Shown here in pieces: positions 11,469-50,132 of a stretch of 64,000 nt of DNA. The translations under genes and the position numbers were made by a program. The notes below the pieces were generated by a model. The model was not told the origin of the DNA and made no database searches. It worked only from the letters and a program-made list of their open reading frames with translations. Numbering within the stretch: position 1 is the first letter of the stretch; the number at the start of each line of letters is the position of its first letter. The stretch is from Patescibacteria group bacterium. Its GTDB lineage: Bacteria; Patescibacteriota; Minisyncoccia; Minisyncoccales; UBA10102. Where the stretch lies: assembly GCA_024239055.1 (NCBI GenBank), contig JANBVJ010000001.1, positions 496,572 to 560,571 of the forward strand. Reading direction: 5' to 3'.

Positions 11469-11545
11469 GCCTCCGTAGCTCAACCGGATAGAGCGACAGT
11501 TTTCTAAACTGTAGGTTGCAGGTTCAAGTCCTGCCGGAGGTACCA
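11469..11545 (+). tRNA. tRNA-Arg (anticodon TCT), CCA encoded
   Basis: Acceptor GCCTCCG/CGGAGGT and anticodon arm ACAGT-TTTCTAA-ACTGT. Confidence 0.9.
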
Positions 11546-11546
11546 T

Positions 11547-11620
11547 GGTGGGCGTAGCTCAATTGGTAGAGCACTTCTTTGTGGAAGAAGTGGTTGCGGG
11601 TTCAAATCCCGTCGCTCACC
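11547..11620 (+). tRNA. tRNA-His (anticodon GTG)
   Basis: Extra G-1, acceptor GTGGGCG/CGCTCAC and anticodon arm CTTCT-TTGTGGA-AGAAG. Confidence 0.9.
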
Positions 11621-11662
11621 CAAATACAAAAGATCGCCTGTTAGGCGGTTTTTTGGTATAAT

Positions 11663-12079
11663 GTGATTATGGAATTACAGGTTGGAGTCAAAATACTATT
11701 ACAGAATAAAGATGGAAAGTATCTTCTTGTTCGGCGTTCTCCAGAAAAGTATCCTGAGATTGAGGCAAAGAACTCATGGGGTATTGTAGGGGGACGCATC
11801 ACCCCAGGCTCTCCTTTGTTTGAGAATCTCAAGAGAGAGGTTAAAGAAGAAACAGAACTTGAGCTTACACAAAAGCCAAAACTCATTGCAGCTCAGGATA
11901 TTCTGCGGATTAGTGGGAGGCATGTTGTACGTTTAACTTATCTTGGAAGTGTAGATGGTGAACCCAAGCTGGATGAGGAGAATATTGATTTTCAGTGGCT
12001 TTCAAGAGATGAGCTTACGTCGGCTCAAGATCTGGATATATATTTTAGGGAACTTCTTGATAAGGGGGCGTTCTTTTAA
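11663..12079 (+). CDS. NUDIX hydrolase
   Basis: Nudix box GGRITPGSPLFENLKREVKEETEL. Confidence 0.8.
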   Translation: MIMELQVGVKILLQNKDGKYLLVRRSPEKYPEIEAKNSWGIVGGRITPGSPLFENLKREVKEETELELTQKPKLIAAQDILRISGRHVVRLTYLGSVDGEPKLDEENIDFQWLSRDELTSAQDLDIYFRELLDKGAFF

Positions 12080-12412
12080 TAATATGGAATACAAAGAGGA
12101 AACAAAAACCCCATCTGCTACGGGATTTTATTCTACTCCTCGTAGTTATAATCGTTGTAGTCATCTTCTTCATCTTCCTCATCATCCTTATTTTCTAGAT
12201 TTTCCTCTTCGGGATCTTCCTTAAGGATGTCATTATCTTCGTCTTCCATATCGAAGATGAAAAAAGGTATAGGGTTATAGTACGCCATTTTAGTATATTT
12301 TTATGTACCATATTATTATAAAAAGTATGGATACTATGTCAAATGAGTTTTTCACAAGAGCAGATTTTAGCTTGTAAATACCCTTATTTTGTAGTATAGT
12401 TGCACAAAGTTT

Positions 12413-12486
12413 GTCCCCGTAGCTCAACTGGATAGAGCGAGACACTCCTAACGTCTAGATTGCAGGTTCGAGTCCTGCCGGGGATA
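12413..12486 (+). tRNA. tRNA-Arg (anticodon CCT)
   Basis: Acceptor GTCCCCG/CGGGGAT and anticodon loop CTCCTAA, with an A-C at pair 31-39. Confidence 0.85.
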
Positions 12487-12487
12487 C

Positions 12488-12560
12488 GGGCCGTTGGCGC
12501 AGCTGGTAGCGCGCTTCCGTGGCACGGAAGAGGTCGCCGGTTCGAGCCCGGCACGGTCCA
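12488..12560 (+). tRNA. tRNA-Ala (anticodon GGC)
   Basis: Acceptor GGGCCGT/ACGGTCC carries the G3:U70 alanine identity pair. Anticodon arm is CTTCC-GTGGCAC-GGAAG. Confidence 0.85.
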
Positions 12561-12566
12561 CATAAA

Positions 12567-12649
12567 GGAGGGTTGGCAGAATGGTTATTGCGCGTCTCTC
12601 GAAAAGTCGTGGGAGAAATCCCTTGTAGGTTCGAATCCTACACCCTCCG
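12567..12649 (+). tRNA. tRNA-Ser (anticodon CGA)
   Basis: Acceptor GGAGGGT/ACCCTCC, G73, a long variable arm (GGGA-GAAA-TCCC) and loop CTCGAAA. The anticodon stem has one T-T mismatch. Confidence 0.75.
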
Positions 12650-20330: not shown

Positions 20331-20401
20331 AGCGAGTGAAGGGAATCGAACCCTCGTACTCTGATTGGCAACCAGATGCACTACCACTGTGCTACACTCG
20401 C
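20331..20401 (-). tRNA. tRNA-Gly (anticodon GCC)
   Basis: Minus-strand acceptor GCGAGTG/CACTCGC and anticodon arm TCTGG-TTGCCAA-TCAGA. Confidence 0.9.
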
Positions 20402-20426
20402 GGCTACACTCGCGATGTTCTCTTTG

Positions 20427-20498
20427 TGCCACGGGGGTGAATTGAACACCCGACTCGAGGCTCTTCAAGCCCCAGCTCTACCACTGAGCTACCGTGGC
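20427..20498 (-). tRNA. tRNA-Phe (anticodon GAA)
   Basis: Minus-strand acceptor GCCACGG/CCGTGGC and anticodon arm GGGGC-TTGAAGA-GCCTC. Confidence 0.9.
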
Positions 20499-20499
20499 A

Positions 20500-20575
20500 T
20501 GGTGGGCGGTATAGGATTCAAACCTATGGCCTCCTCGGTGTAAACGAGGCGCTCTATCAGCTGAGCTAACCGCCC
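20500..20575 (-). tRNA. tRNA-Val (anticodon TAC), CCA encoded
   Basis: Minus-strand acceptor GGGCGGT/ACCGCCC and anticodon arm CCTCG-TTTACAC-CGAGG. Confidence 0.9.
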
Positions 20576-20586
20576 TTGTTTCTATG

Positions 20587-20669
20587 TGCGGACGAGAGGA
20601 TTCGAACCTCCACGGGAATAATCCCACTGGCCCCTCAAGCCAGCGCGTCTACCATTCCGCCACGTCCGC
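20587..20669 (-). tRNA. tRNA-Leu (anticodon GAG)
   Basis: Minus-strand acceptor GCGGACG/CGTCCGC, a long variable arm and anticodon arm CTGGC-TTGAGGG-GCCAG. Confidence 0.9.
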
Positions 20670-21856: not shown

Positions 21857-21929
21857 TGGGCAATACAGGACTTGAACCTGTGACCTCCTCAATGTCAATG
21901 AGACGCTCTAGCCAGCTGAGCTAATTGCC
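21857..21929 (-). tRNA. tRNA-Val (anticodon GAC)
   Basis: Minus-strand acceptor GGGCAAT/ATTGCCC and anticodon arm TCTCA-TTGACAT-TGAGG. Confidence 0.9.
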
Positions 21930-22006
21930 CTGGTGGGCCAGGCAGGATTCGAACCTGCAAACCGGCAAGATATAAGCTTGCTGCTCTACCATTGAGCTAC
22001 TGGCCC
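21930..22006 (-). tRNA. tRNA-Ile (anticodon TAT), CCA encoded
   Basis: Minus-strand acceptor GGGCCAG/CTGGCCC, A73 and a perfect anticodon stem GCAAG/CTTGC around loop CTTATAT, giving anticodon UAU. Confidence 0.85.
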
Positions 22007-38770: not shown

Positions 38771-38797
38771 TTTTTAGGTACAATATGGAGCAATTAA

Positions 38798-38871
38798 GGT
38801 CCCGTCGTCTAGCCCGGTTAGGACGCCTGGTTTTCATCCAGGTAACAGGGGTTCAAATCCCCTCGGGACCG
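38798..38871 (+). tRNA. tRNA-Glu (anticodon TTC)
   Basis: Acceptor GGTCCCG/CGGGACC and anticodon arm CCTGG-TTTTCAT-CCAGG. Confidence 0.9.
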
Positions 38872-38877
38872 CTTAAT

Positions 38878-40458
38878 ATGTCGCAAAATACATATCTCAC
38901 CATAGGCAGAGCATCAGATATTCAAGACCCTGGAGATAGGGTACTATTTCGTTTTTTTGAGATGCTACCCGGTATTCTTTCATGGACTACAATTATTGGT
39001 GCTGTAGTTTTTTCTTGGTTATTTCCACAATGGACCGCGTTCTTTATTATCGCTTTTGTCATGTACTGGCTTTTGCGTACGGTATATTTTTCCTTTCATT
39101 TAAGGTCAGGATACAAGAAGATGCGAGAGAATGAGAATATTGATTGGATAGCAAGACTAAATGATTTAAAAGAGTATCAAGTTGATATTACTTCATGGAG
39201 AGATCTCTACCACTTAGTTATTATCCCAACCTATAAAGAATCCTATGAGGTAGTTGCTCAAAGTATTCGTTCTTTAAAATCCGCAAATTATCCTTCCGAC
39301 CGTCTTATAGTGATTTTGGCAATTGAAGAAAGAGAGGGAGAAGATGGAATTCAGAAAGCAGAGCGCTTAAAGAAAGAATTTCAAGGAGTCTTTAATGAGT
39401 TTCTTGTAACTATTCATCCAGATGGAGTTGCAGGTGAGATTGCGGGAAAGGGGGCTAACGAAGCCTGGGCTGGGCCTAAAGCTCAGGAACTAATTGATCA
39501 AAAGAAGATTCCATACGAAAGAGTTATTGTAACTTCTTTGGATGCAGATACCGTAGTGTATCCTGAATACTTTGGATGTTTAAGTTATTACTATCTTACG
39601 ACTGAAGATCCTCAAAGAACTTCTTTCCAGCCAATTCCTTTGTTTTTAAATAACATATGGCAGGCAAATCCTATTTCAAAGATATTTTCTTTTGCTTCTA
39701 CCTTCTGGCATACCATGAATCAGGAACGTCCAGAAAAGCTTGTTACCTTCTCCACTCATGCAATGTCGTTTCAGGCTTTAGTAGACGTGGGATTTAAACT
39801 TCCAAATGTTGTGTCTGATGATTCCCGCATCTTTTGGCAGTGTTTCTTATACTATGACGGGGATTATAAGGTACAGCCTATTTATTATCCTATTTCTATG
39901 GATGCGAACGCAGCTCCCAATTTTCTTTTAACTCTGCGCAATATGTATCTTCAGCAGAGGAGATGGGCATATGGGGTTGGAGAGATTCCTTATTTTCTAT
40001 TTGGTTTTGTAAAGAATAAGAAGATACCAATGAAAAAAAAGATTGTAATGACATTTGAGCTTTTGGAAAGCCATTGGTCATGGGCTACTTCTTCATTTTT
40101 AATCTTTATACTGGGATGGCTTCCATTGTTCTTGGGGGGAGAGGTATTTGCCGACACCTTGCTTTCCTATAGCCTTCCTCGTTTTATCTCTGGAATGATG
40201 ACAATATCCATGGTTGGAATCATTGGTTCGGTCTTTTTAAGCATTAATTTACTTCCTGAAACAAAGCCAAAGTATGGCAGAGGCAAGCTTGTTGTTTTTG
40301 CCTTACAATGGGTATTCCTTCCGTTCTTGATGATATTCTTTACTGCTCTTCCTGCATTAGATGCCCAAACCAGATGGATGTTCGGAAAGTATATGGGATT
40401 CTGGGTAACTCCAAAGTTCAGAAAAGATGAGGCTACTCCAAGTGCAACTTCTCTCTAA
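38878..40458 (+). CDS. Membrane-embedded family-2 glycosyltransferase, processive-synthase type
   Basis: The ATG at 38878 follows the tRNA. It has N- and C-terminal TM bundles and the GT2 motifs VIIPTYKE, SLDADT and QQRRWAYG (QxxRW). Confidence 0.75.
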   Translation: MSQNTYLTIGRASDIQDPGDRVLFRFFEMLPGILSWTTIIGAVVFSWLFPQWTAFFIIAFVMYWLLRTVYFSFHLRSGYKKMRENENIDWIARLNDLKEYQVDITSWRDLYHLVIIPTYKESYEVVAQSIRSLKSANYPSDRLIVILAIEEREGEDGIQKAERLKKEFQGVFNEFLVTIHPDGVAGEIAGKGANEAWAGPKAQELIDQKKIPYERVIVTSLDADTVVYPEYFGCLSYYYLTTEDPQRTSFQPIPLFLNNIWQANPISKIFSFASTFWHTMNQERPEKLVTFSTHAMSFQALVDVGFKLPNVVSDDSRIFWQCFLYYDGDYKVQPIYYPISMDANAAPNFLLTLRNMYLQQRRWAYGVGEIPYFLFGFVKNKKIPMKKKIVMTFELLESHWSWATSSFLIFILGWLPLFLGGEVFADTLLSYSLPRFISGMMTISMVGIIGSVFLSINLLPETKPKYGRGKLVVFALQWVFLPFLMIFFTALPALDAQTRWMFGKYMGFWVTPKFRKDEATPSATSL

Positions 40459-42529
40459 GTTCTTCCATACGTTTTTTTAGGATTGGATGTTTTTTTAACT
40501 CCAGGTCTTTTTCTAGTATTTCGTTGGCCGCTTCCTTTGCCTCCTCGACAAGCTGAAGGTTGAGTAACTGCTCCATTGCAAAATCTGGCACTCCCCATTG
40601 TTTTAGTCCAGTAAAATCTCCAGGTCCACGTATCTTTAGATCCTGTTCTGCTAACTCAAAGCCAGAAGTCGAGGTTGCCAATGCCTGCAGTCTTTTACGT
40701 GTAGTTTCAGAATTTGAATCAGTGAACAGAAAGCAGTAGGATTGATGTTCAGCTCTTCCTACTCGTCCACGAAACTGATGAAGTTGGGCTAATCCAAAGT
40801 GTTCTACTCCTTCAATAAACATGACGGAAGCGTTTGGAATGTCTATTCCAACTTCCACAACAGAGGTTGAGACAAGTACGTCCGTTGTACCTCTCTTGAA
40901 CTTCTGCATTACAACTTCCTTTTCTTTGGTAGTCATTTTTCCGTGAAGCATGTCTACGTTGTAATCAGGAAAGATTTCTTCCTCCAACTTCTTATGCTCT
41001 TCTTGCACTGTCCTTATTATTTTTCCATCTTCCGTCTCCTTATCACTTTTGGCCTCAATCCTAGGACATATAACAAAGACCTGTCGCCCTTTTTCTATCT
41101 CTTTTGCCATAAACTTATATGCGTTCTCTCGTTCTCTGGGAGGAATAATGCTGGTTTTAACCTTCTTTCTTCCTTTTGGAAGTTCGTCTAATACCGTTAA
41201 GTCCAAGTCTCCGTAAATTGAGAGGGCTAGGGTACGAGGAATTGGGGTAGCAGTCATTGAAAGTAAATGCGGAATGAGAGTGGTCTTATGTAAGAGCTTT
41301 GCCCTTTGGCGCACCCCAAAGCGATGTTGTTCGTCTACAATAACTAGAGCCAAGTCTGAAAACTTTACTTGATCTTGAATAATAGCATGGGTTCCAATAA
41401 GTAAGTTAATACTTCCGTCCTTTGCACGTTCTAAAAGCTTCCTGCGAGATATTTCAATAACATCTTTGGGAAGTTTTTTTGATATGAACTTATCTTCCTT
41501 TCCTGTAAGGAGACCAATATCCATTCGAAAAGGAGATAGGAGTTGTCCTAAGGATTTAAAGTGTTGTTTTGCTAAAATCTCAGTAGGGGCGAGAAGGGCC
41601 ACCTGATATCCCTCTCTTATCGTAGCTAAAGCTGCAATGGCGGCCACAATAGTTTTACCAGACCCCACATCTCCTTCAAGAAGTCTATTCATTGGACGAG
41701 GTTTTTCAATATCTTTTAATATCTGCCATGTAGCTTTTCTTTGGGCGTCTGTAAGTTTATATGGAAGTTTGCTTAGTAGTCTTTTTACCAAATCAATTGA
41801 TAGTGGAACCGGAATTGCCTTTACTTTAGCTAGTCTTTTACGCTCAGTTAAGACAAAGAGCATAATTTGAAAGAGTTCTTCAAAAGCAAAGCGTTTCTTG
41901 GCTTCCTTTGCCTGCTGTTTGGAATCTGGGAAATGAGCTTGTTTTAATGCCTCTTGAAACTCTAGGATGTCTCGCTTCTTGAGTATTTCCTTTGGCAGAG
42001 TTTCAGGGAGTGAATCTAACTGGTCTAAGATTGTCTTTACCATCTGACGTATCCATCTGGAAGATATTCCTGAGGTTTCCGGGTATATAGATACTAGGCG
42101 TCCGACATGAATGTGCTCTTCCTGTTCTGTTTTTTCGTATGAAGGATTAGATAAGGTAATCCCAGTTTTATTGCGTATTACCTTTCCAACAAATAAAGCT
42201 TCATCGTCTTTCTGAAGATTAGTTGTAATATATGGTTGGTTAAACCAAATTAGTTTTAGGGATCCGGTTTTGTCTTCTATAACAGCTTGTGTAATAGACA
42301 TTCTTCTTTGCCATATTCTTTTTAACTTTATGTCTAGTATTCTTCCTTTAATACAATAAGTCTGCCCCTCCCTTACCTTATTAATAGAGGTTATCTTTGA
42401 GAAGTCCTGATATTCTTTTGGGAAATGAAAAAGAAGATCACGTGTTGTGGTGATTCCTAGTTTCTTCAATCTTTTTTCATATATTGGCCCTACCCCGGGC
42501 AGGCGTGTAATTGGAGTGGAAAGATTCAT
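40433..42529 (-). CDS. recG: ATP-dependent DNA helicase RecG
   Basis: The ATG at 42529 gives MNLSTPITRLPGVGP. It has a wedge domain plus helicase motifs (GDVGSGKT, DEQHRFG, SMTATPIPRT, QLHQFRGRVGR). The listed ORF extends into a tRNA. Confidence 0.9.
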   Translation of the reverse strand: MNLSTPITRLPGVGPIYEKRLKKLGITTTRDLLFHFPKEYQDFSKITSINKVREGQTYCIKGRILDIKLKRIWQRRMSITQAVIEDKTGSLKLIWFNQPYITTNLQKDDEALFVGKVIRNKTGITLSNPSYEKTEQEEHIHVGRLVSIYPETSGISSRWIRQMVKTILDQLDSLPETLPKEILKKRDILEFQEALKQAHFPDSKQQAKEAKKRFAFEELFQIMLFVLTERKRLAKVKAIPVPLSIDLVKRLLSKLPYKLTDAQRKATWQILKDIEKPRPMNRLLEGDVGSGKTIVAAIAALATIREGYQVALLAPTEILAKQHFKSLGQLLSPFRMDIGLLTGKEDKFISKKLPKDVIEISRRKLLERAKDGSINLLIGTHAIIQDQVKFSDLALVIVDEQHRFGVRQRAKLLHKTTLIPHLLSMTATPIPRTLALSIYGDLDLTVLDELPKGRKKVKTSIIPPRERENAYKFMAKEIEKGRQVFVICPRIEAKSDKETEDGKIIRTVQEEHKKLEEEIFPDYNVDMLHGKMTTKEKEVVMQKFKRGTTDVLVSTSVVEVGIDIPNASVMFIEGVEHFGLAQLHQFRGRVGRAEHQSYCFLFTDSNSETTRKRLQALATSTSGFELAEQDLKIRGPGDFTGLKQWGVPDFAMEQLLNLQLVEEAKEAANEILEKDLELKKHPILKKRMEELREKLHLE

Positions 42530-42531
42530 TG

Positions 42532-42604
42532 TATCCCCGGCAGGATTTGAACCTGCGGCCTCTTGGTCCGCAACCAAGCGCTCTATCCGCTGAGCTACGG
42601 GGAC
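42532..42604 (-). tRNA. tRNA-Arg (anticodon GCG)
   Basis: Minus-strand acceptor GTCCCCG/CGGGGAT and anticodon arm CTTGG-TTGCGGA-CCAAG. Confidence 0.85.
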
Positions 42605-42681
42605 ATATCAGTAGTCTAGCTGTATTTCTTTGGAATTTCAAGCTTGATTTTCCTCTATTTCTCCGTATAATATGCTTTATA

Positions 42682-42771
42682 GGAGAGGTGGCTGAGCGGC
42701 TGAAAGCAGCACACTGCTAATGTGCTAGGGGAGAAATCCTCTCGTGGGTTCGAATCCCACCCTCTCCGCCA
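42682..42771 (+). tRNA. tRNA-Ser (anticodon GCT), CCA encoded
   Basis: Acceptor GGAGAGG/CCTCTCC, G73, a long variable arm and anticodon arm GCACA-CTGCTAA-TGTGC. Confidence 0.9.
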
Positions 42772-42774
42772 TAC

Positions 42775-42859
42775 GGAGGAGTTGAGCAACGGTGGCTCTC
42801 TTGTCTTGAAAACAAGCGCCAGAAATGGCATGTGGGTTCGAATCCCTCCTCCTCCGCCA
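42775..42859 (+). tRNA. tRNA-Ser (anticodon TGA), CCA encoded
   Basis: Acceptor GGAGGAG/CTCCTCC, G73, a long variable arm and anticodon arm CTTGT-CTTGAAA-ACAAG. Confidence 0.85.
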
Positions 42860-42860
42860 A

Positions 42861-43505
42861 TTATTTTATCCCTGCAACAATCTGGGCGAGTCCTTTAAAG
42901 AAGGTTCGCTTTTTTGTTTGAGTAAATCCTATTTGTGAGAGTTCTTCTTGTAAGGGTTCAGTAAATATCCCCCAAGCTTCTTTGTTCTCTACTAAAAAGA
43001 ACTGAATATATATAGGAAGGCGAAAGAGAGGGAATTGAGGCATATGGTATTCATATATAATAAATACACCTCCTTTTTTTAAGAGACGGTATGCTTCTTT
43101 CATAACCAAAAGTCGTTGCGTATGTGGAAGGTCGTGAATGGCAAAGCTTATTATTACCGTATCTGCTATGTTTGACGAATATGAGGTATGAACCGCATCT
43201 TGAAGGGATATCTCAATTTCAATATTTTGTTTTACGGCTTTTCTTTGTATTTGTTTCAACATACCCTCAGATAGGTCAGAAGCCAAAACACGAGAGTTAG
43301 GATACTCTTTCTTTAATAAAAGAGCTGCCTCTCCTGTTCCGCAGGCCAAATCAATGATTATCTTTGGGTTTTTAGGAATGAATTGAAGTATTTTTCTTCT
43401 TAGTGCTTTTGTATTTCCTAGTACTCCAATTGAAACCCATAGGTCATACATGGGTGGTAGCCATCTTGATACAAAGAGTCCTCTGTAATATGTAGGTTTT
43501 TTCAC
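42861..43505 (-). CDS. Class I SAM-dependent methyltransferase
   Basis: Motif I IIDLACGTGEAA, followed by the VLASDLS and ISFAIHDL motifs. Confidence 0.75.
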   Translation of the reverse strand: MKKPTYYRGLFVSRWLPPMYDLWVSIGVLGNTKALRRKILQFIPKNPKIIIDLACGTGEAALLLKKEYPNSRVLASDLSEGMLKQIQRKAVKQNIEIEISLQDAVHTSYSSNIADTVIISFAIHDLPHTQRLLVMKEAYRLLKKGGVFIIYEYHMPQFPLFRLPIYIQFFLVENKEAWGIFTEPLQEELSQIGFTQTKKRTFFKGLAQIVAGIK

Positions 43506-43578
43506 AAGTGTTTTTATATTTTGGAATTAATTTATATTTATAGAGATAATTATAAAAAAGTTTTGTCTAAATAATATA

Positions 43579-44553
43579 TTAATTCTTTGTAGAGTTTTCA
43601 ATGTATTTTTTGTAATTAATAAGTGATTTTCGTCTTTTTTTAATATATATTTTTTGATTTAGTATTAATGAGCGCTTTAATTTATTTTTTGTTCTATCGA
43701 TTTTCGATTTTGTTTTTCCACCAATAGATAATCTGTTTCTATACATTTTTAATCCTAGATGTTCCATACCTTCTTCATGAGATATTATATCTTTTTTGGA
43801 ATCATTTAGAGGAAGTCCTTGATTTTTATCTATTAAGAATAATTGTTTAATTTCATCATAAAGTTTTTCCATCTGAGCTTTTGAAACTCTACTTGCAGTT
43901 ATACCTATGTCATCTACATAAATTGCTATGCGTGGATCTTTGCCTTTCAAACGTTTTTTTACAAGTTGATCAAGTTTTAAAAAGATATCAAGATTACACC
44001 ATATGGCTAGTCGTGATGATGTAGCAAATCCACGTGCTATTGTTTTTTGCGTATTAGGATTTTCTTTTGGACCAATTGGAACACAACAAAATTTTGCTAG
44101 TAATCTAGCTCCTGTTTCACTACACTCACATTTGTTTCTAAAAAAATGATATACTCTTTCTTCACTAATTTGTTCAAAAAAATGGGTTATATCTAATTTC
44201 AATATAGTCCGTTCTCTTTTTACGCCAAGTAAATGTTTTACAGCTTTTGTGTGATTTAATTTTTTAACACCTCCAAAAATAAAATTAGGGAGCATCTTAT
44301 CATGAGGAGCTAGAACAGTTTTATTTATATTATCTAATAATCTACCTAATGGAGTTCTTTTTGCACTTCGGACATATTTTTCTTTTTCTGGCTCTGATTG
44401 GCTTTTATTATCTCTCCAATAATTATCGAAGTTTTTTATAACATCATTTATTAATACTAGTACATCTTCTTTTGGGAATTTAGTATGACTTAGATGTTTT
44501 GCTAATTCATTTTTGCTTCGTATATAAAGTCTTGGATATCGTCTATTTTCCAT
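43579..44553 (-). CDS. Reverse transcriptase, small retron-like / defence-type RT
   Basis: 324 aa with RT motifs FIFGGVKKLNHTKAVKHLLG, ILKLDITHFFEQIS (motif A Asp), IARGFATSSRLAIWCN, IAIYVDDIGITAS (YxDD) and GLPLNDSKK...EHLGLKM. It has no maturase or endonuclease domains. The gene is very AT-rich. Confidence 0.8.
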   Translation of the reverse strand: MENRRYPRLYIRSKNELAKHLSHTKFPKEDVLVLINDVIKNFDNYWRDNKSQSEPEKEKYVRSAKRTPLGRLLDNINKTVLAPHDKMLPNFIFGGVKKLNHTKAVKHLLGVKRERTILKLDITHFFEQISEERVYHFFRNKCECSETGARLLAKFCCVPIGPKENPNTQKTIARGFATSSRLAIWCNLDIFLKLDQLVKKRLKGKDPRIAIYVDDIGITASRVSKAQMEKLYDEIKQLFLIDKNQGLPLNDSKKDIISHEEGMEHLGLKMYRNRLSIGGKTKSKIDRTKNKLKRSLILNQKIYIKKRRKSLINYKKYIENSTKN

Positions 44554-44869
44554 CTTGTTTCAAAAGTTTTGCACGATTCTTAATTAAATGTTCCTGTAGT
44601 TTTTCACCAAACTCAATAAGCCTTTTTTCTATTTTTGAGAGATTTTGTTCGGATTCGTTTTTATTATAATAAAGAAAAGGAGTAATTGATGATGGATGTA
44701 TTTTTAAGCTTTCAGCAATTTTTGTGATTAAATTTTTCGATACATCTTTTTGGCCTGTTTCTACCATAGCAATAAGTACAGTAGAAACACCGATAGCTTT
44801 TGCAAATTCAGCTTGTGTCAGTCCAGCCTCATTTCTTATTTCTTTTAATAATTCTGGGAAAGTATACAT
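44543..44869 (-). CDS. XRE-family helix-turn-helix protein
   Basis: LKEIRNEAGLTQAEFAKAIGVSTVLIAMVETGQKDVSKNLITKIAESL is a canonical XRE HTH. Its stop overlaps the RT start by 11 nt (ATGGAAAATAG). Confidence 0.85.
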   Translation of the reverse strand: MYTFPELLKEIRNEAGLTQAEFAKAIGVSTVLIAMVETGQKDVSKNLITKIAESLKIHPSSITPFLYYNKNESEQNLSKIEKRLIEFGEKLQEHLIKNRAKLLKQDGK

Positions 44870-45376
44870 ATAAACGACTACAGGGCGATCATTATAGAAG
44901 ATCTTTGAGGATGTGAATAATCGCAGAGATTATTCGTAGGAGCCTCATTAGCTTCATTATTTTTGATCGCCCTGTGATACGGAAGGTACAATTCATCTCT
45001 AGGGTCCAAGTATTTGTGCATCATATTTTGTACTTAAGCGTTTAACATAGGCAATGTAGTCTTGCGACTGTTAGTTTATTAAGGACATACTCAGTTCCTC
45101 GCGGTTGTCAGTTTCGATCAAAACCTTCCGGTAATACCAGCAACCACGAGGTTGTAGGTAGTCCCCTGCAAGCAAGGCATAAATCTAATTAGTAATTGCT
45201 TGTCTTAACTTGTCTAACAACACGTGCACGCTACTTAATTTGCATGTAGGTGCTGGAACAAGGTCCGCTCCTTGTAAAAGAGAGGTCAGATGTTCTTTAA
45301 GTAAGAACAATCTATAATCTTCGAAATGAATTCCGCTTTTATCTGAATTGATTTTTAAATTAAGGTACTGCCTTAG
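44870..45376 (-). ncRNA. Candidate structured non-coding RNA / long leader of the HTH-RT operon
   Basis: No ORF of 60 aa or more on either strand. It lies downstream of a near-consensus promoter and holds at least 7 stem-loops. One 11-bp stem is fully paired (with a G-U) only on the minus-strand transcript. GC is higher than in the adjacent ORFs. Confidence 0.45.
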
Positions 45377-45381
45377 TATCT

Positions 45382-45409
45382 ATTATACAAAACGTATAAG
45401 TTTAGTCAA
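45382..45409 (-). promoter_or_regulatory. Sigma-70-like promoter driving the leader-HTH-RT unit
   Basis: On the minus strand: TTGACT (45409-45404), N16, TATAAT (45387-45382). Confidence 0.55.
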
Positions 45410-45453
45410 GGGTGATTATCTACAAGTAATCATAATTGAGCATGCAGGTATAT

Positions 45454-46005
45454 TTATCTTGCAACTACCATTCCCCATATATCTTGAGCTCCTTGTTTCT
45501 TTAATTTGCTAGCCATATCTTCCATGCGTTCCCCTGTGTCATATATGTCATCTACAAGGAGTATTCTTTTGTTTGGTAGCTCTTTAATAGATACAATGGG
45601 AATATTAAGAGAAGAGGAAAGTTCTCTTGTAATTTCTTTAATATGATTGAATCCCCTGCGTCGCTGTTCTTTTTTTGGTACAGGAATAGGAAGAAGAACC
45701 GAGTTATTTAAAAGCTTCTCATTGTGCGAGTTGAGAACGTGGGATATAATTAGAAAAGCGAATTGAGAGGAGAGATCACGAAGAAATGGAGGATTTTTAT
45801 AATGTGCTAGTGCTTTTTGAATGAGAGGTTCCTTAATAGAAGTTGCAGAAAGAAGTCCTGTGAGAGAGGGGCTGTTGTGCGAAAACACCTCTTTGTTTGG
45901 AGATATTGTTGCGAGGCAGTCCTCACAGAGATGAGTTCCTTCATTTTTACACGAGATGCAGATTTTCGGCCATAGAATAGTGAGTAAGGAATGAAGGATA
46001 AACAT
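45454..46005 (-). CDS. comFC: ComF-family phosphoribosyltransferase-like competence protein
   Basis: N-terminal Zn-finger Cys pairs (CISCKNEGTHLCEDC) and a C-terminal PRTase motif ILLVDDIYDTGERM. Confidence 0.75.
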   Translation of the reverse strand: MFILHSLLTILWPKICISCKNEGTHLCEDCLATISPNKEVFSHNSPSLTGLLSATSIKEPLIQKALAHYKNPPFLRDLSSQFAFLIISHVLNSHNEKLLNNSVLLPIPVPKKEQRRRGFNHIKEITRELSSSLNIPIVSIKELPNKRILLVDDIYDTGERMEDMASKLKKQGAQDIWGMVVAR

Positions 46006-46017
46006 TATATATATTGT

Positions 46018-47088
46018 ATGACGTTACCTAAAATAATTCCATCATTTAATTCCATTCCTTTTATTCCCAAGGTGGCTTTAGGAATAGATATTGGGACATC
46101 TTCTTTAAAGATAGTGGAGATATCCAAATGGGCAGGCAGAAAGTCTTTAAAAAACTACGGAGAGTTAAAAGCTATAACTCTATATGACAAACCATTTCGT
46201 ACCTTTGAGAAAAATACTCTTGTTCTCTCTAGCAAGGATATTGCTCGGGCTTTGAGGGCGATTATTCAGGAGTCTAAGATTACAAGCAAGAGGGCGGTTT
46301 TTTCCATCCCTGACTTTTCTTCTTTTTTTACTTCTTTTGAGCTCCCTCCTATGACTAAAGAAGAGCTTCCAGGGGCCGTTGACTTTGAGGCAAGAAAGCA
46401 TGTGCCCATGCCGTTATCTGAGGTAATTTTTGACTGGCAGATACTTTCTGGACGAGTTAAGCAGAATACTCCATTGAAGATTCTTTTGGTTGCGGTCCCC
46501 AGAGAGGTGGTAAATCAGTACCAGGAGATAGCCGCTCTTTCCAAACTAGAGCTTGTGGCTTTGGAAGCAGAAGCATTTGGGCTTATTCGCGCGACCTTGG
46601 AGGATGAGACAGAGTCAATGCTTGTCTTAGATATTGGTGCTCAGTCCACCACTGTAAATACTGTTATTGCCGGTCAACTTCATTCTTCTCGTTCATTTGA
46701 TATTGCCGGTAACGCGTTTTCTGAAAGAATAGCCCGTTCTCTTTCTATTAATGCTAAGGAAGCTGATGAAAAAAAGATGTCAAAAGGTATGGAAGACAAG
46801 TATATCCTTGAGATACTTACTCCTTTGGTGGATTTAGTTTCAGCTGAAATTAAAAAGTCAGTAGTACAGTTTCCAAAGGATATAAAACCATCCAAGTTGG
46901 TGCTGGCAGGCGGCACTTCCCGCCTTCCTGGACTGCGTGAGTATCTTAAAGAACAGACCGGAATTGTAACAGAATATGCCTCTCCTTTTAATTCGGTCTT
47001 TTATCCTCCGATTTTAGAGAGTACAATAAAGGTAATGGGCCCTTCTTATGCGGTAGCCGTTGGCGCGGCTCTTAGAGGAACCCAGTAG
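46018..47088 (+). CDS. pilM: Type IV pilus assembly protein PilM, copy 2
   Basis: GIDIGTSSLKIVE, VLDIGAQSTT and LAGGTSRLPGL. The ATG at 46018 is preferred because the listed start at 45991 overlaps comFC. Confidence 0.85.
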   Translation: MTLPKIIPSFNSIPFIPKVALGIDIGTSSLKIVEISKWAGRKSLKNYGELKAITLYDKPFRTFEKNTLVLSSKDIARALRAIIQESKITSKRAVFSIPDFSSFFTSFELPPMTKEELPGAVDFEARKHVPMPLSEVIFDWQILSGRVKQNTPLKILLVAVPREVVNQYQEIAALSKLELVALEAEAFGLIRATLEDETESMLVLDIGAQSTTVNTVIAGQLHSSRSFDIAGNAFSERIARSLSINAKEADEKKMSKGMEDKYILEILTPLVDLVSAEIKKSVVQFPKDIKPSKLVLAGGTSRLPGLREYLKEQTGIVTEYASPFNSVFYPPILESTIKVMGPSYAVAVGAALRGTQ

Positions 47089-47090
47089 AT

Positions 47091-47615
47091 ATGGTTGATA
47101 TAATACCAAAACAACAAGAGACGGAATTGAGTTCAATTGCGCTGACCATAGCCATCGTTATTCTTGTTATATCTGTTGGGAGTTTTGGCATCTTTGCTTT
47201 TTTAAAGACAAGGACTGAAAGTAAATTGGAGGAGGCAACAATATTCCTACTGGAAGGAAAATCAAAGGAACAGGCAGAACTGGAATCTCAGATTTTAGAC
47301 ATCAAGACAAAGCTGGAGGACTTTTCAGTATTGGCTTTAAGACAAAATAACCCATCTGCTTTCTTTGAGTTTATTGAAGAGAATACACATCCTGATATTA
47401 TATTTTCTCAGCTTTCTCTTAATCCACAGGATAGGAAGGCGGTCATAAATGGAGAGACCAGAACTTTTCGTAACTTGCAGGAACAGATTTTACTACTTAA
47501 AGAACAGGCAGACTCAGAAGAGGTAGAGCTTACCTCCATATCTCTTGGGCAGGAAGGACAGGTAAAATTTACTTTGGTTTTAGAATTTGAACATTCATTC
47601 TTTCTTAATCTATGA
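47091..47615 (+). CDS. pilN: PilN-like protein, copy 2
   Basis: Single TM helix plus a coiled coil. The call rests on synteny after pilM. Confidence 0.55.
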   Translation: MVDIIPKQQETELSSIALTIAIVILVISVGSFGIFAFLKTRTESKLEEATIFLLEGKSKEQAELESQILDIKTKLEDFSVLALRQNNPSAFFEFIEENTHPDIIFSQLSLNPQDRKAVINGETRTFRNLQEQILLLKEQADSEEVELTSISLGQEGQVKFTLVLEFEHSFFLNL

Positions 47616-48136
47616 ACCGTCCATTTGTAATTATTGGAATTGTAGTCATTGTTCTGGTTATTCTGGCCTTCTGGGTCTTTCCTATGTATCAGGATTTTCA
47701 GGAACTTTCTGTTGAGTTGATTGAGAAGGACGCCGAACTTCAGAATAGAGAAGATTACTTTTCTGAGATTCAATCTATTAATGATAGACTAAAAATATAT
47801 GAGGAGGAATTGGCAAAGCTACATGCCGCCATTCCCAATGATTCATCTCTCCCTTCTTTGTATGATTTGGTTCAGCGCCTTAGTTCAGAATCAGGCCTTG
47901 TGCTCCGTCAGATCTCAGCTATTGAGGATACAAAGACGGTATCTGGTATTCAAGCTCAGACCATTGCAGTCAGTCTGAATCTGGAAGGTTCTTATGATGG
48001 GTTAAAGGCATTTTTAAATAGAATACAGACAGCTCCCCGTTTGCTTGACGTAACTTCTGTTGGCTTTGTATCACCTGCTACAGGTCTGCCATTCCAGTTT
48101 CAGTTCGCTATTTTTCTAAACGCATTTTCCTACTAA
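47612..48136 (+). CDS. pilO: PilO-like protein, copy 2
   Basis: TM helix, a coiled coil and ...LNLEGSYDGLKAFLNRIQTAPRLLDVTSV, which resembles PilO. Confidence 0.6.
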   Translation: MNRPFVIIGIVVIVLVILAFWVFPMYQDFQELSVELIEKDAELQNREDYFSEIQSINDRLKIYEEELAKLHAAIPNDSSLPSLYDLVQRLSSESGLVLRQISAIEDTKTVSGIQAQTIAVSLNLEGSYDGLKAFLNRIQTAPRLLDVTSVGFVSPATGLPFQFQFAIFLNAFSY

Positions 48137-48137
48137 T

Positions 48138-48401
48138 ATGGCTATTACATTTATTCAACAAAAAAAACGACAGAAATACTTCCTTGCTGCCCTATCTGCA
48201 GTGATACTTATTACTGGATTCGTGCTCTGGCAGGGATTTGTTTCAGATGTTGGTACTGAGGGTCCTTTAATAAAACCTCCCCAGGAAGTTGTTCTGCGAT
48301 TTGATGTTTTAGAAAGTGAGGCCTTAAACAGACTAGAGAATCCAGGAGTTGAGCTTACTTTACCAACTGAGACAGGAAAAGGAAATCCATTTCTTAAGTA
48401 A
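48138..48401 (+). CDS. Small single-TM protein closing pilMNO cluster 2
   Basis: 87 aa with one TM helix. It is the positional analogue of 11121..11423. Confidence 0.35.
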   Translation: MAITFIQQKKRQKYFLAALSAVILITGFVLWQGFVSDVGTEGPLIKPPQEVVLRFDVLESEALNRLENPGVELTLPTETGKGNPFLK

Positions 48402-48404
48402 CAT

Positions 48405-50132
48405 ATGAGTACTCTTACGCGACTTGTAAAACAAAAGGTTATTACAAAAGAACAGGCATCTGAGTTGGAGGCTGCAGCTCAGTCTGCTTCAGTTTCAGTT
48501 GAAGAGTTGGCGCTCCAGAAGAATATTGTTAACGAGGATATTCTATTTTCTGCAAAGGCTGAAGAGTTAAAACTTCCACTGCGTAAAGTGACAGCGGAAT
48601 CCATTTCTCCTGAGATTCTAGAATTAATACCAGAGGATTCTGCAAAGTACTATCGCATAGCCCCACTCTCTTTAAAGAACAATAAGTTGGAAGTTGGCAT
48701 GGTGGAACCCGAAAACACGCAAGCCCAGCAGGCACTGAAGTTCTTGGCGCGCCAGGGGAACTTCTCTTATGTTTCAGCTTTGATTACCCCTTCTACATTT
48801 CATAAAATCTTTGCTCAGTATCGGAATACGAAGACGGAAACCGGCAAGGTGCTAGAGGAACTGGAACAAGAGATAAAGATAGAAAAACCTACTACATTAA
48901 GAGATGCGGTACAGAGGCTTGTTGAGGAGGCTCCTGTTACCAAGATGGTTGCCGTTATCTTAAGAACTGCTGTTGAGGGAGGAGCATCTGATATTCATGT
49001 GGAACCTGTAAAAGACAGGTTGCGAGTGAGATTCCGTTCTTTAGGGGAACTTCACTCTTCTTTGTTTTTGCCAGCGAACGTGCATCAGACTATTATTGCG
49101 AGAATCAAGATTCTTGCCAATTTAAAGATTGACGAGAGCCGTACTCCTCAGGATGGTAGGTTTTCTGCCACGATTGATGACAAGTCTGTGGATTTTCGTG
49201 TTGCAACCTTTCCTACAGCGTTAGGTGAGAAGGTGGCAATTAGAGTATTGGATCCATCTAAGGGTCTCAAGGGTCTTGAGAATCTTGGTTTGGAGGGAAC
49301 AAACCTCACAAAGGTAAAAGAAGCCTTAAAAAAGCCATTTGGTCTTGTACTTTCTACCGGCCCCACGGGTTCTGGTAAGACAACTACGCTTTACTCAATG
49401 CTCAGCTCTATAAACCGAGAAGGAGTAAATATTGTGAGCTTGGAAGATCCAATTGAGTATTTAATAAAAGGAGTGAATCAGTCCCAGATACGGCCTGAAT
49501 TGGGATATGACTTTGCCCAGGGACTGCGCCAAGTGCTTAGGCAAGACCCAGATATTATTATGGTAGGTGAGATTAGAGACATTGAGACTGCCTCCCTCGT
49601 GACACATGCGGCCTTAACCGGGCATATCGTGCTCTCTACTCTTCATACCAACAACGCCGGGAGTGTGGTGATAAGGTTGTTAAATATGGGAGTGGATAAA
49701 TATCTTATTCCGGCCACCCTTTCCATTGCTTTGGCGCAGCGTCTTGTGCGGCGCTTGTGCGATGCCTGCAAGGAAGCTGTTCCTGCATCAAAGGAGATTA
49801 GAGAACTTATGATAAAAGAGCTTGAGTCAGCTCCGCCTTCTCTTCAAAAACAACTTGCTTCTCATCTTTCAAATAAGGAGAGCATTAAGGTGTACAAAGC
49901 AGTGGGATGTAAGAAGTGCGGGGGGTCTGGATACTCAGGACGCACTGGAATATTTGAGGTTGTGGAGATGACGCCACAGCTTGCTGCCATTATTCTTTCT
50001 GAACCTACAGAATCCAAGATTACGCAAGAGCTTAAGGCTCAAGGTATGGTAACAATGGCTCAAGATGGGTTTGCCAAGGTATTGGATGGCGTGACAACGC
50101 CAGAGGAGATATTGCAGCAGACCGGCGAATGA
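48405..50132 (+). CDS. pilB: Type IV pilus assembly ATPase PilB/GspE, copy 2
   Basis: T2SS-E N-terminal domain, RTPQDGRF, Walker A GPTGSGKTTTLYSM and a tetracysteine motif CDAC...CKKCGGSG. Confidence 0.9.
   Translation: MSTLTRLVKQKVITKEQASELEAAAQSASVSVEELALQKNIVNEDILFSAKAEELKLPLRKVTAESISPEILELIPEDSAKYYRIAPLSLKNNKLEVGMVEPENTQAQQALKFLARQGNFSYVSALITPSTFHKIFAQYRNTKTETGKVLEELEQEIKIEKPTTLRDAVQRLVEEAPVTKMVAVILRTAVEGGASDIHVEPVKDRLRVRFRSLGELHSSLFLPANVHQTIIARIKILANLKIDESRTPQDGRFSATIDDKSVDFRVATFPTALGEKVAIRVLDPSKGLKGLENLGLEGTNLTKVKEALKKPFGLVLSTGPTGSGKTTTLYSMLSSINREGVNIVSLEDPIEYLIKGVNQSQIRPELGYDFAQGLRQVLRQDPDIIMVGEIRDIETASLVTHAALTGHIVLSTLHTNNAGSVVIRLLNMGVDKYLIPATLSIALAQRLVRRLCDACKEAVPASKEIRELMIKELESAPPSLQKQLASHLSNKESIKVYKAVGCKKCGGSGYSGRTGIFEVVEMTPQLAAIILSEPTESKITQELKAQGMVTMAQDGFAKVLDGVTTPEEILQQTGE

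Follow-up and report, generated by a model that had tools for sequence, protein, structure and literature searches.

Which system does a small, stand-alone reverse transcriptase (RT) belong to when its gene follows a helix-turn-helix (HTH) gene and a long structured leader, and what does such a leader encode? The question is raised by a cassette in the genome of a Patescibacteria group bacterium, located at positions 43579-45409 of a 64-kb stretch of contig JANBVJ010000001.1 (496,572-560,571; hereafter the window, whose numbering is used throughout) and lying entirely on the minus strand. An earlier note on this DNA had proposed a retron-type defense cassette—that is, a small stand-alone RT with an upstream structured RNA and an HTH partner—and had considered that it might belong to an unclassified group. 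The core of that proposal is upheld here by the best PADLOC matches of the two proteins (RT_VI and HTH_VI), by a profile comparison with canonical type VI RTs, and by covariation in the leader. The cassette is very probably a type VI retron, one of a divergent lineage that extends across the Patescibacteria.

Class of the reverse transcriptase and its HTH partner

Type VI retrons combine a clade-3 RT and a 91-110-aa HTH protein of the Cro/C1 type, often together with a small accessory protein (SP), whose gene lies upstream of that for the HTH protein and has been annotated in just part of the catalogued set (Mestre et al., 2020, PMC7736814). The effector of these systems is the small toxic SP, encoded inside a "hybrid RNA" (hyRNA) in which its ribosome-binding site (RBS) and coding sequence are folded into stems (bioRxiv 10.1101/2025.10.22.683967).

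The RT open reading frame (ORF) of the window contains LKLDITHFFEQIS, IAIYVDDIGITAS, and EHLGLKM, and a Pfam scan of its product returned RVT_1 (6e-10) and no second domain, confirming the earlier description of a 324-aa protein that has the palm motifs of an RT and is free of maturase, endonuclease, and integrase domains. The neighboring 108-aa gene, described as a canonical XRE-type HTH gene whose stop overlaps the RT ATG by 11 nt, likewise agrees in its coordinates and in its HTH_3 match (5.9e-13), and its size, its place, and its overlap with the RT gene accord with the type VI definition (PMC7736814). Classification of the RT by profile hidden Markov models (HMMs), named at the outset as the check on its identity, placed RT_VI first among the PADLOC models (full length, 3.5e-29, 100 bits), ahead of RT_IV (5e-17, 60 bits), and HTH_VI was the top match of the partner protein (8.9e-15). 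The ranking was identical, with RT_VI and HTH_VI best, for three further members of the RT family. Thus, the idea of an unclassified group gives way, both proteins being matched best by profiles of a type already defined by its HTH partner; the system class is most likely a known one, and defense finders equipped with type VI models would be expected to call the cassette.

The relationship to canonical type VI retrons is distant but extends along the whole protein. An hhalign comparison of two profiles, one built on 24 RTs related to that of the window and the other on 24 canonical type VI RTs, gave a probability of 98.5%. As the canonical reference, a type VI retron carried by an Acetobacter plasmid was used (L054; RT_VI 273 bits, HTH_VI 113 bits); its RT is colinear with that of the window, with 23% identity over 318 aa (E 2e-14), and the two HTH proteins are 30% identical. 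The YVDD motif and the other palm motifs are invariant throughout the RT family of the window. The reference retron itself (Acetobacter sp. AC2005 plasmid NZ_CP149627.1, 76816-82652), in which the genes follow the order SP-HTH-RT, has an IS110-family transposase gene on either side; the plasmid is conjugative, and the retron is possibly carried as a composite element.

Two other origins of the RT were weighed. It is very improbable that a non-retron defense RT, of the defense-associated (DRT), unknown-group (UG), or abortive-infection (Abi) kind, stands beside an HTH regulator by chance. Weaker PADLOC matches to Drt3a (1.4e-13), UG17 (1e-12), and AbiA (2e-8) were indeed recorded; NCBIfam leaves the RT unclassified, with retron_St85_RT as the best match at 56.6 bits against a cut-off of 235 (and no match for the small ORFs described below); and a PDB sequence search with the RT family profile yielded only a weak match to the palm of a group II intron maturase (6me0), and no close solved structure. 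However, RT_VI leads over the full length by 40 bits, with HTH_VI as the partner, whereas the matches to Drt3a, UG17, UG26, and AbiA are partial and fall at least 50 bits below it. Drt3, UG17, and AbiA proteins are, moreover, larger and have other partners, and the gene order, gene overlap, small ORF, and structured RNA of the cassette all fit type VI.

A remnant of a group II intron or of a diversity-generating retroelement (DGR) is effectively refuted. What speaks for such a remnant is generic RVT_1 similarity, a match to TIGR04416 at 35.8 bits (cut-off 300), and the weak similarity to 6me0. Against it, RVT_1 is the only domain, with no maturase (X) or endonuclease domain beside it; Rfam gave no match for an intron RNA, or for any other part of the leader, at E<=1 in the locus, and at gathering thresholds in the whole window, with tRNAs and chance matches as the only returns; and a search of 39000-50000 for template and variable repeats revealed no direct repeats of at least 30 nt save one 73%-identical AT-rich chance pair. 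A group II or DGR placement with the matching intron RNA or repeats, which the earlier note had named as contradicting its proposal, was not encountered.

Homologues of the RT number 448 at E<=1e-3 in a large protein collection, and those with a named source, like the 53 related loci that were drawn from species-representative genomes for comparison, come nearly all from Patescibacteria (Saccharibacteria, Paceibacterota, and several "Candidatus ...bacteria" groups). An HTH gene lies directly upstream of the RT gene in essentially all of the 53 loci that are uncut by a contig end, and a leader of at least ~500 nt without a large ORF is found throughout. An apparent lack of the HTH gene in one locus (L001) proved to be a run of masked N. 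In a Doudnabacteria locus (L019, 3670-4000), the C-terminal half of the HTH protein alone is detectable, and the upstream region has neither leader nor small ORFs, which may mark the copy as degenerate or rearranged.

A covarying leader RNA

The fold of the leader is more stable than that of all of 100 shuffled sequences (minimum free energy z = -4.9), which bears out the many hairpins noticed earlier. A search with nhmmer, using the window leader as the query, found matches running from the promoter to the HTH start in at least 17 loci, whose RTs are 55-78% identical. In an alignment of 18 loci (alignment A2), five helices comprising 38 pairs were paired in 95.9% of cells, compared with 32-44% for controls in which the partner strand was slid, and 31 of the 38 pairs changed on both sides. 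Conservation of the upstream region as RNA, the covariance check put forward in the earlier note, is thus borne out. The features of the leader and of the genes that follow it are collected in Table 1.

Table 1. Features of the cassette, with positions in the window and evidence for each.
Feature	Positions	Strand	Description
Promoter	45382-45409	-	Sigma-70-type; TTGACT (45409-45404), 16-nt spacer, TATAAT (45387-45382)
Palindrome TTATAC-GTTTT-GTATAA	45383-45399	.	Over promoter spacer and -10; candidate HTH operator
Leader	44870-45375	-	~505 nt; proposed hyRNA equivalent, with a non-coding msr/msd-like part and a small toxin ORF (candidate)
a1/a2-like helix, 5' arm CAAUUCA	45344-45350	-	Pairs with 44995-44989
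a1/a2-like helix, 3' arm UGAAUUG	44989-44995	-	One base upstream of the pseudoknot 3' strand
P1 stem-loop, msr-like	45313-45309 / 45292-45288	-	Within 45265-45314; 97.8% paired, 2 pairs changed on both sides
P2 stem-loop, msr-like	45285-45280 / 45270-45265	-	82% paired, 5/6 pairs changed on both sides
Variable segment	45169-45262	-	Length and sequence vary; folds as hairpins; one msd candidate
Hairpin H3 (CCUCGUGGUUG / CAACCGCGAGG)	45097-45151	-	33-nt loop carries the pseudoknot 5' strand
Pseudoknot 5' strand CGGAAGGU	45123-45130	-	In the H3 loop; pairs with 44987-44980
Pseudoknot 3' strand ACCUUCCG	44980-44987	-	Directly 5' of the toxin hairpin
Toxin hairpin	44880-44975	-	96 nt, encloses the candidate toxin ORF; 12-bp base ACAGGGCGAUCA / UGAUCGCCCUGU
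Frame-A ORF (MMHKYLDPRDELYLPYHRAIK...IMIAL)	44878-45024	-	48 aa; covers the whole candidate toxin ORF in the -1 frame; proposed leader/coupling ORF
Frame-B ORF MKLMRLLRIISAIIHILKDLL	44892-44957	-	21 aa (34 aa from ATG 44996); proposed SP toxin
HTH gene	44543-44869	-	108 aa, Cro/C1-type; HTH_3 (Pfam), HTH_VI (PADLOC top match)
RT gene	43579-44553	-	324 aa, YVDD, no extra domains; RVT_1, RT_VI; very probably a divergent type VI retron RT

The a1/a2 repeats of retrons could not be identified in the first reading of the sequence. A covarying long-range inverted repeat that resembles them is nevertheless present (45350-45344 / 44995-44989): its 7 bp are paired in 90.5% of cells of the 18-locus alignment, 6 of the 7 pairs change on both sides, and the helix was found again in an alignment of 43 loci. 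The two stem-loops that follow at the 5' end, P1 and P2, are msr-like, the latter being moderately supported. Between the conserved blocks lies a stretch that could not be aligned (columns 190-370) and that forms hairpins in the constrained fold; this variable segment, 45262-45169, is one candidate for the template of reverse transcription (msd).

The hairpin H3 has 11 bp in the window, and its core of 8 pairs (45148-45141 / 45107-45100) is paired in 96.5% of cells, with 7 of 8 pairs changed on both sides; an outer extension, GGGGAC/GUCCUU, is unsupported, being paired in 47.7% of the locus alignment. The 3' strand of H3 also has a weaker alternative partner ~220 nt upstream, ~45336-45327 with 45110-45101 (columns 98-107 / 469-478 of the 18-locus alignment), for which 78.7% pairing and changes on both sides in 9 of 10 pairs were recorded, and the two mutually exclusive folds may constitute a conformational switch.

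The loop of H3 forms a pseudoknot with the segment that directly precedes the toxin hairpin, paired in 97.2% of cells of the 18-locus alignment and with 7 of its 8 pairs changed on both sides. Because of a one-column register shift between subclades in the 43-locus alignment, the automatic helix scan missed this pairing, and an alignment-free test was used instead, on the 43 non-redundant loci to which the small-ORF analyses below also refer: the 8-bp complement is perfect in 42 of them, in 27 distinct variants, as against 6.9% in a cross-locus control. The base of the toxin hairpin, finally, is a perfect 12-nt inverted repeat, with 10 pairs (44975-44966 / 44889-44880) that are 97.2% paired and of which 9 changed on both sides. 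A simple terminator scan found no intrinsic terminator past this hairpin.

Frame B, a minimal toxin candidate

The distance from the comFC stop (45454) to the HTH ATG (44869) is 584 bp, in agreement with the ~580 bp given before, but the description of this interval as free of ORFs does not hold: it contains two conserved overlapping small ORFs, of 48 aa (frame A) and of 21-34 aa (frame B), which sit at the place equivalent to that of the SP gene in every locus. Thus, the leader is not purely non-coding, and the part of effector or accessory, previously given to the HTH protein, would fall to a small SP-like toxin candidate, the counterpart of the type VI effector.

Frame B is open in 42 of the 43 loci, and in 40 it starts with ATG and runs for at least 20 codons. 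Across the family, the consensus reads MKxxLRILRIILQIVRIIRDLI, with polar residues spaced every 3-4 positions. Over the overlap with frame A, the entropy at codon positions 1, 2, and 3 is 1.50, 0.93, and 1.69, respectively, and T is almost fixed at position 2—the signature of a conserved hydrophobic peptide, indicating that frame B is under protein-level selection. From its sequence, the frame-B peptide is a predicted cationic amphipathic helix; in the window, its hydrophobic moment is 0.50 and its net charge +3, compared with 0.46 and +4 for the C-terminal helix of a canonical SP. Canonical SPs were taken from 47 non-redundant type VI loci from metagenomes; their median length is 57 aa, and their C-terminal ends are helices, GPWIAKILRLAIELVKLFKG being one example. 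When an HMM built on 41 of these SPs was run against the three frames of the Patescibacteria loci, the top 31 matches all fell in frame B, pointing to a weak resemblance between frame B and the C-terminal helix of the canonical ~57-aa toxins. The 3' end of the SP coding sequence in the Acetobacter reference likewise forms a hairpin.

In Saccharibacteria-like relatives, a GGAGG Shine-Dalgarno (SD) sequence stands 5-6 nt before the ATG or GTG of frame B; it forms part of the 5' strand of the hairpin base, where a CCUCC in the 3' strand pairs with it. In these SD-using relatives, the predicted pairing is that of a sequestered ribosome-binding site, as in Retron-Vpa2 of Vibrio parahaemolyticus. 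A programmed frameshift from frame A into frame B is unlikely, because frame B retains a start codon (ATG or GTG) of its own and, in those relatives, an SD as well. By analogy with the SPs of the known systems, the frame-B peptide is likely the toxic effector.

Three loci depart from the common pattern of frame B. A Paceibacterota locus (L006, 3560-3665) carries an in-frame stop (…FFRAL*ILLQVVRILRDLLC), with frame A open, and this may reflect an inactivated toxin or a sequencing error. In two others (L027 and L028, ~3540-3640), frame B lacks an ATG that would give a suitable length; L027 has an AGGAGG with a GTG at the proper spacing downstream, and alternative start codons are probably used.

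Frame A, an overlapping frame leading to the HTH gene

Over the 21-codon overlap, frame A is open in all 43 loci, whereas synonymous resampling of the frame-B peptide predicts 13.5, and the third frame is open in just one. Its ATG is conserved, with a strong AGGAGG-type SD in 17 of the 43 loci, and of the three columns that never vary in the 43-locus alignment, two belong to the frame-A stop codon. The distance from this stop to the HTH ATG has a median of 11 nt (range 4-38), and the HTH gene is without an SD-like core in 41 of 43 loci; such closeness of the stop to an SD-less gene suggests translational coupling. No counterpart of frame A was found in the 47 canonical type VI loci, where the corresponding frame is open in 19 despite a much higher GC content, and the HTH gene of the Acetobacter reference carries its own SD.

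It could be argued that frame A itself, as the counterpart of SPs of 55-79 aa, is the real toxin, and that the hydrophobic frame B is a by-product of the AT-rich hairpin. Frame A is the longer of the two, near the SP of Vpa2 (55 aa) in size, has a short hydrophobic tail at its end, and combines a frame that is never closed with a conserved start. Its codon positions, however, with entropies of 1.69, 1.50, and 0.93, are most variable at the first and most conserved at the third, the opposite of what is expected for a protein-selected frame. Its conserved residues ("LPY" and "V-AL") reflect RNA strands that covary, and they vary each time the pairing strand varies; "LPY", for instance, is CCUUCCGUAU, the pseudoknot strand, and varies with its partner. 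Moreover, the canonical-SP HMM favors frame B, which is open in 42 of 43 loci when 19.8 would be expected given the frame-A peptide. The SP role is thus unlikely for frame A. Judged from these patterns, frame A is most likely translated in order to unwind the hairpin and pass ribosomes to the HTH gene and then to the RT gene, rather than for its product, with a role as a second protein being possible.

Promoter and candidate operator

The near-consensus promoter reported previously (TTGACT-N16-TATAAT) scores 11/12 and is the top promoter-like site within 43400-45600, in agreement with that report. Its -35 and -10 positions are kept in the alignments of homologous loci, and the predicted transcript start near 45375 gives the leader its length of ~505 nt.

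A palindrome overlies the promoter. Around a variable 5-nt spacer, its half-sites (TATAC and GTATA) are the same in all 18 aligned loci, and they are recognizable in most of those among the 43 loci whose aligned stretch extends to the promoter; the exact TATAC-N5-GTATA occurs a single time in the 64-kb window. Invariance of the half-sites without covariation points to a constraint on DNA rather than on RNA. Autorepression of the promoter by the HTH protein, through the palindrome TTATAC-N5-GTATAA, would be the obvious explanation.

A proposed mechanism

From the single promoter, a ~505-nt structured RNA would be transcribed, followed by the HTH and RT genes. The a1/a2-like helix ties the 5' end of this RNA to the segment directly upstream of the 3' hairpin, to which the pseudoknot also ties the H3 loop, and the ribosome-binding region of frame B lies within the paired base of the 3' hairpin. 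By homology with Vpa2 and with Retron-Sen3, the toxic peptide would be restrained by RNA structure and/or the HTH protein; RT, HTH protein, and RNA would form a complex; and the HTH protein would act as antitoxin, repressor, and RT partner, with repression exerted through the palindrome—the last of these proposed on sequence alone. Phage infection, again by homology, would lead to RT-made cDNA and/or to a loss of HTH restraint, and so to release of the toxin and growth arrest or death (abortive infection). The phage cues in the type VI cases studied so far are recombination proteins or RecBCD inhibition (bioRxiv 10.1101/2025.10.22.683967, 10.64898/2026.04.27.721009).

Frame A would begin in the linker, cross the pseudoknot strand and the toxin hairpin, and end ~8 nt before the HTH ATG, so that its translation would open the hairpin and bring ribosomes first to the HTH gene, which lacks an SD, and from there to the RT gene overlapping it. 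Synthesis of the antitoxin and of the RT would thereby be coupled to access to the toxin ORF, in a manner reminiscent of mok/hok. It is conceivable, though doubtful, that the lineage has turned the type VI toxin module into a switch with two coding frames: ribosomes would reach the HTH and RT genes by way of frame A alone, and the out-of-frame toxin ORF, frame B, would be nested within frame A and have its start region held closed by the base of the hairpin. The pseudoknot would then be broken, and the choice of frame reset, when the H3 loop is reverse transcribed or cut by RNase H, or when the HTH protein or the RT is no longer bound. Such a module would be a retron-embedded analogue of mok/hok.

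Several points weigh against the type VI assignment and the workings proposed here. The RT_VI scores of the Patescibacteria lineage (81-101 bits) are about one third of the canonical score of 273 bits, and the type VI placement is one of HMM score ranking. The likeness between frame B and the canonical SPs is weak for any single sequence—the best E value is 5e-5 in a tiny database, and that of the window peptide is ~1—and may be partly compositional. Within the window, a clear SD was found for neither small ORF. The a1-like arm is followed directly by a G in the window (45343), as it is in roughly half of the 18 loci; in the rest, the G is displaced by 1-3 nt or missing. Furthermore, the two characterized type VI retrons, Vpa2 and Sen3, differ from each other in their control logic (bioRxiv 10.1101/2025.10.22.683967, 10.64898/2026.04.27.721009), and six type VI retrons, among them one from Candidatus Levybacteria (Mestre-729), gave no detectable single-stranded DNA (ssDNA) in Escherichia coli, according to Khan et al. 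(2025) as cited in bioRxiv 10.64898/2026.04.27.721009.

The last of these points, together with the want of a branching G that is fixed across the aligned loci, and with the position of the covarying helices, all of which surround translation signals, could be taken to mean that the leader is a mere cis-regulatory 5' untranslated region for the small ORFs, the HTH gene, and the RT gene, with the RT making no cDNA from it and copying another template or acting non-catalytically. Such a leader is quite improbable. The catalytic YVDD is invariant along with the other palm motifs, and it is hard to see what the conserved 5' stem-loops and the a1/a2-like helix would do for the control of translation; in Vpa2, RT activity is required for defense and low-level cDNA maps to the hyRNA (bioRxiv 10.1101/2025.10.22.683967), and Sen3 produces ssDNA constitutively (bioRxiv 10.64898/2026.04.27.721009).

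Genomic setting

The cassette is flanked by recG, an S-adenosylmethionine (SAM) methyltransferase gene, three tRNA genes, a comFC-like gene, pilM, pilO, and pilB, so that the comFC, type IV pilus, and recG neighbors named earlier agree with the annotation. The GC content of the RT and HTH genes is 25-31%, as against 39-43% in the flanks, and none of the 53 related loci has flanking genes in common with the window. These two findings support a horizontally moving cassette, as the earlier note had suggested from the AT-richness of both genes. With no conserved flanking genes among the 53 loci, neither a shared insertion site nor an extra gene of the system, such as the downstream methyltransferase, can be argued for.

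The 64-kb window contains 20 tRNA genes, mostly in tight clusters (for example, 11469-12649, 20331-20669, 21857-22006, and 42532-42856). One cluster of three (Arg, Ser, Ser) lies ~720 bp from the retron cassette, with the methyltransferase gene as the sole gene in between. Some ORF calls in the region need correction: the recG ORF (40433-42577) begins inside tRNA-Arg (42531-42604), and a 557-aa ORF at 38785 begins over a tRNA (38798-38871), both having false N-terminal extensions and true starts further in. The comFC-like (minus) and pilM (plus) genes are divergent, and their called ORFs overlap by 15 nt at the 5' ends (45991-46005); given this overlap, at least one of the two starts is probably mis-called.

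Comparison with known systems

Retron-Vpa2 (Zhang et al., bioRxiv 10.1101/2025.10.22.683967) has the same succession as the window cassette, namely a structured RNA with a toxin ORF, followed by the HTH and RT genes. The hybrid RNA of Vpa2 is ~470 nt long, compared with ~505 nt in the window, and in both systems the toxin RBS and coding sequence lie in stem-loops, long-range inverted repeats connect the 3' and 5' parts, and the RT has a YxDD motif. The differences begin with the RT of the window, which is only distantly related (~23% identity to a canonical type VI RT), and with the candidate toxin, whose length is 21-34 aa against 55 aa in Vpa2. The toxin hairpin of the window is also crossed by a second ORF, which ends just upstream of an SD-less HTH gene, and the long-range contact is partly a pseudoknot between a loop and a single strand; both features set the window cassette apart from Vpa2, as does its Patescibacteria host.

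Retron-Sen3 and the cl2075 lineage (Garcia-Rodriguez et al., bioRxiv 10.64898/2026.04.27.721009) share with the window the order SP-HTH-RT and an SP region under RNA structural selection. Also common to Sen3 and the window are an internal stem-loop with a non-conserved center (the candidate msd; SL3 in Sen3), long-range pairing between the non-coding RNA and the SP region, and an amphipathic C-terminal helix of the SP. The SP of Sen3, however, is 79 aa long and consists of a two-helix core extended at its N-terminus, whereas a single helix is predicted in the window. The IR1-IR2 stem of Sen3 is without significant covariation, in contrast to the window pseudoknot, which covaries in 27 variants. 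The hosts differ as well, being Beta- and Gammaproteobacteria for Sen3/cl2075 and Patescibacteria for the window.

In the hok/mok/sok type I toxin-antitoxin system, a short membrane-type toxin ORF has its start locked in RNA structure, and translation of a longer, out-of-frame overlapping ORF opens that structure. The arrangement of frame B and frame A in the window would be a functional analogy to this system, with no sequence relationship between them; unlike hok/mok/sok, the window has no evident antisense RNA, its overlapping ORF ends beside an HTH gene, and the whole is part of an RT-bearing retron.

The host range of type VI retrons was already catalogued to include this superphylum (Patescibacteria/candidate phyla radiation), as the set of Mestre et al. 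contains the Candidatus Levybacteria member mentioned above (bioRxiv 10.64898/2026.04.27.721009). In the literature searched, that retron and its missing ssDNA were the sole mention of retrons in the superphylum; that literature yielded no analysis of the RNA or the small ORFs of this member, nor any of a retron RNA or effector in Patescibacteria, and none of the minimal toxin, overlapping frame, and pseudoknot of the present lineage. The basic identity of the element is ordinary; its possible novelty lies in the minimal toxin, in the conserved overlapping frame and its apparent coupling to the HTH and RT genes, and in the exceptionally well-supported pseudoknot. With 27 compensatory pseudoknot variants, a minimal 21-aa candidate toxin, and a second frame open in every member, the lineage provides an unusually clean comparative set, on which the interplay of RNA structure, translation, and reverse transcription in type VI retrons can be tested directly and at little cost; as a compact (~1.8 kb) RT-RNA cassette, it is also of possible interest for retron engineering. 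Overall, the type VI design, with a toxin gene hidden in the retron RNA as in Vpa2 and Sen3, appears to extend recognizably to a large RT family of the ultra-small Patescibacteria.

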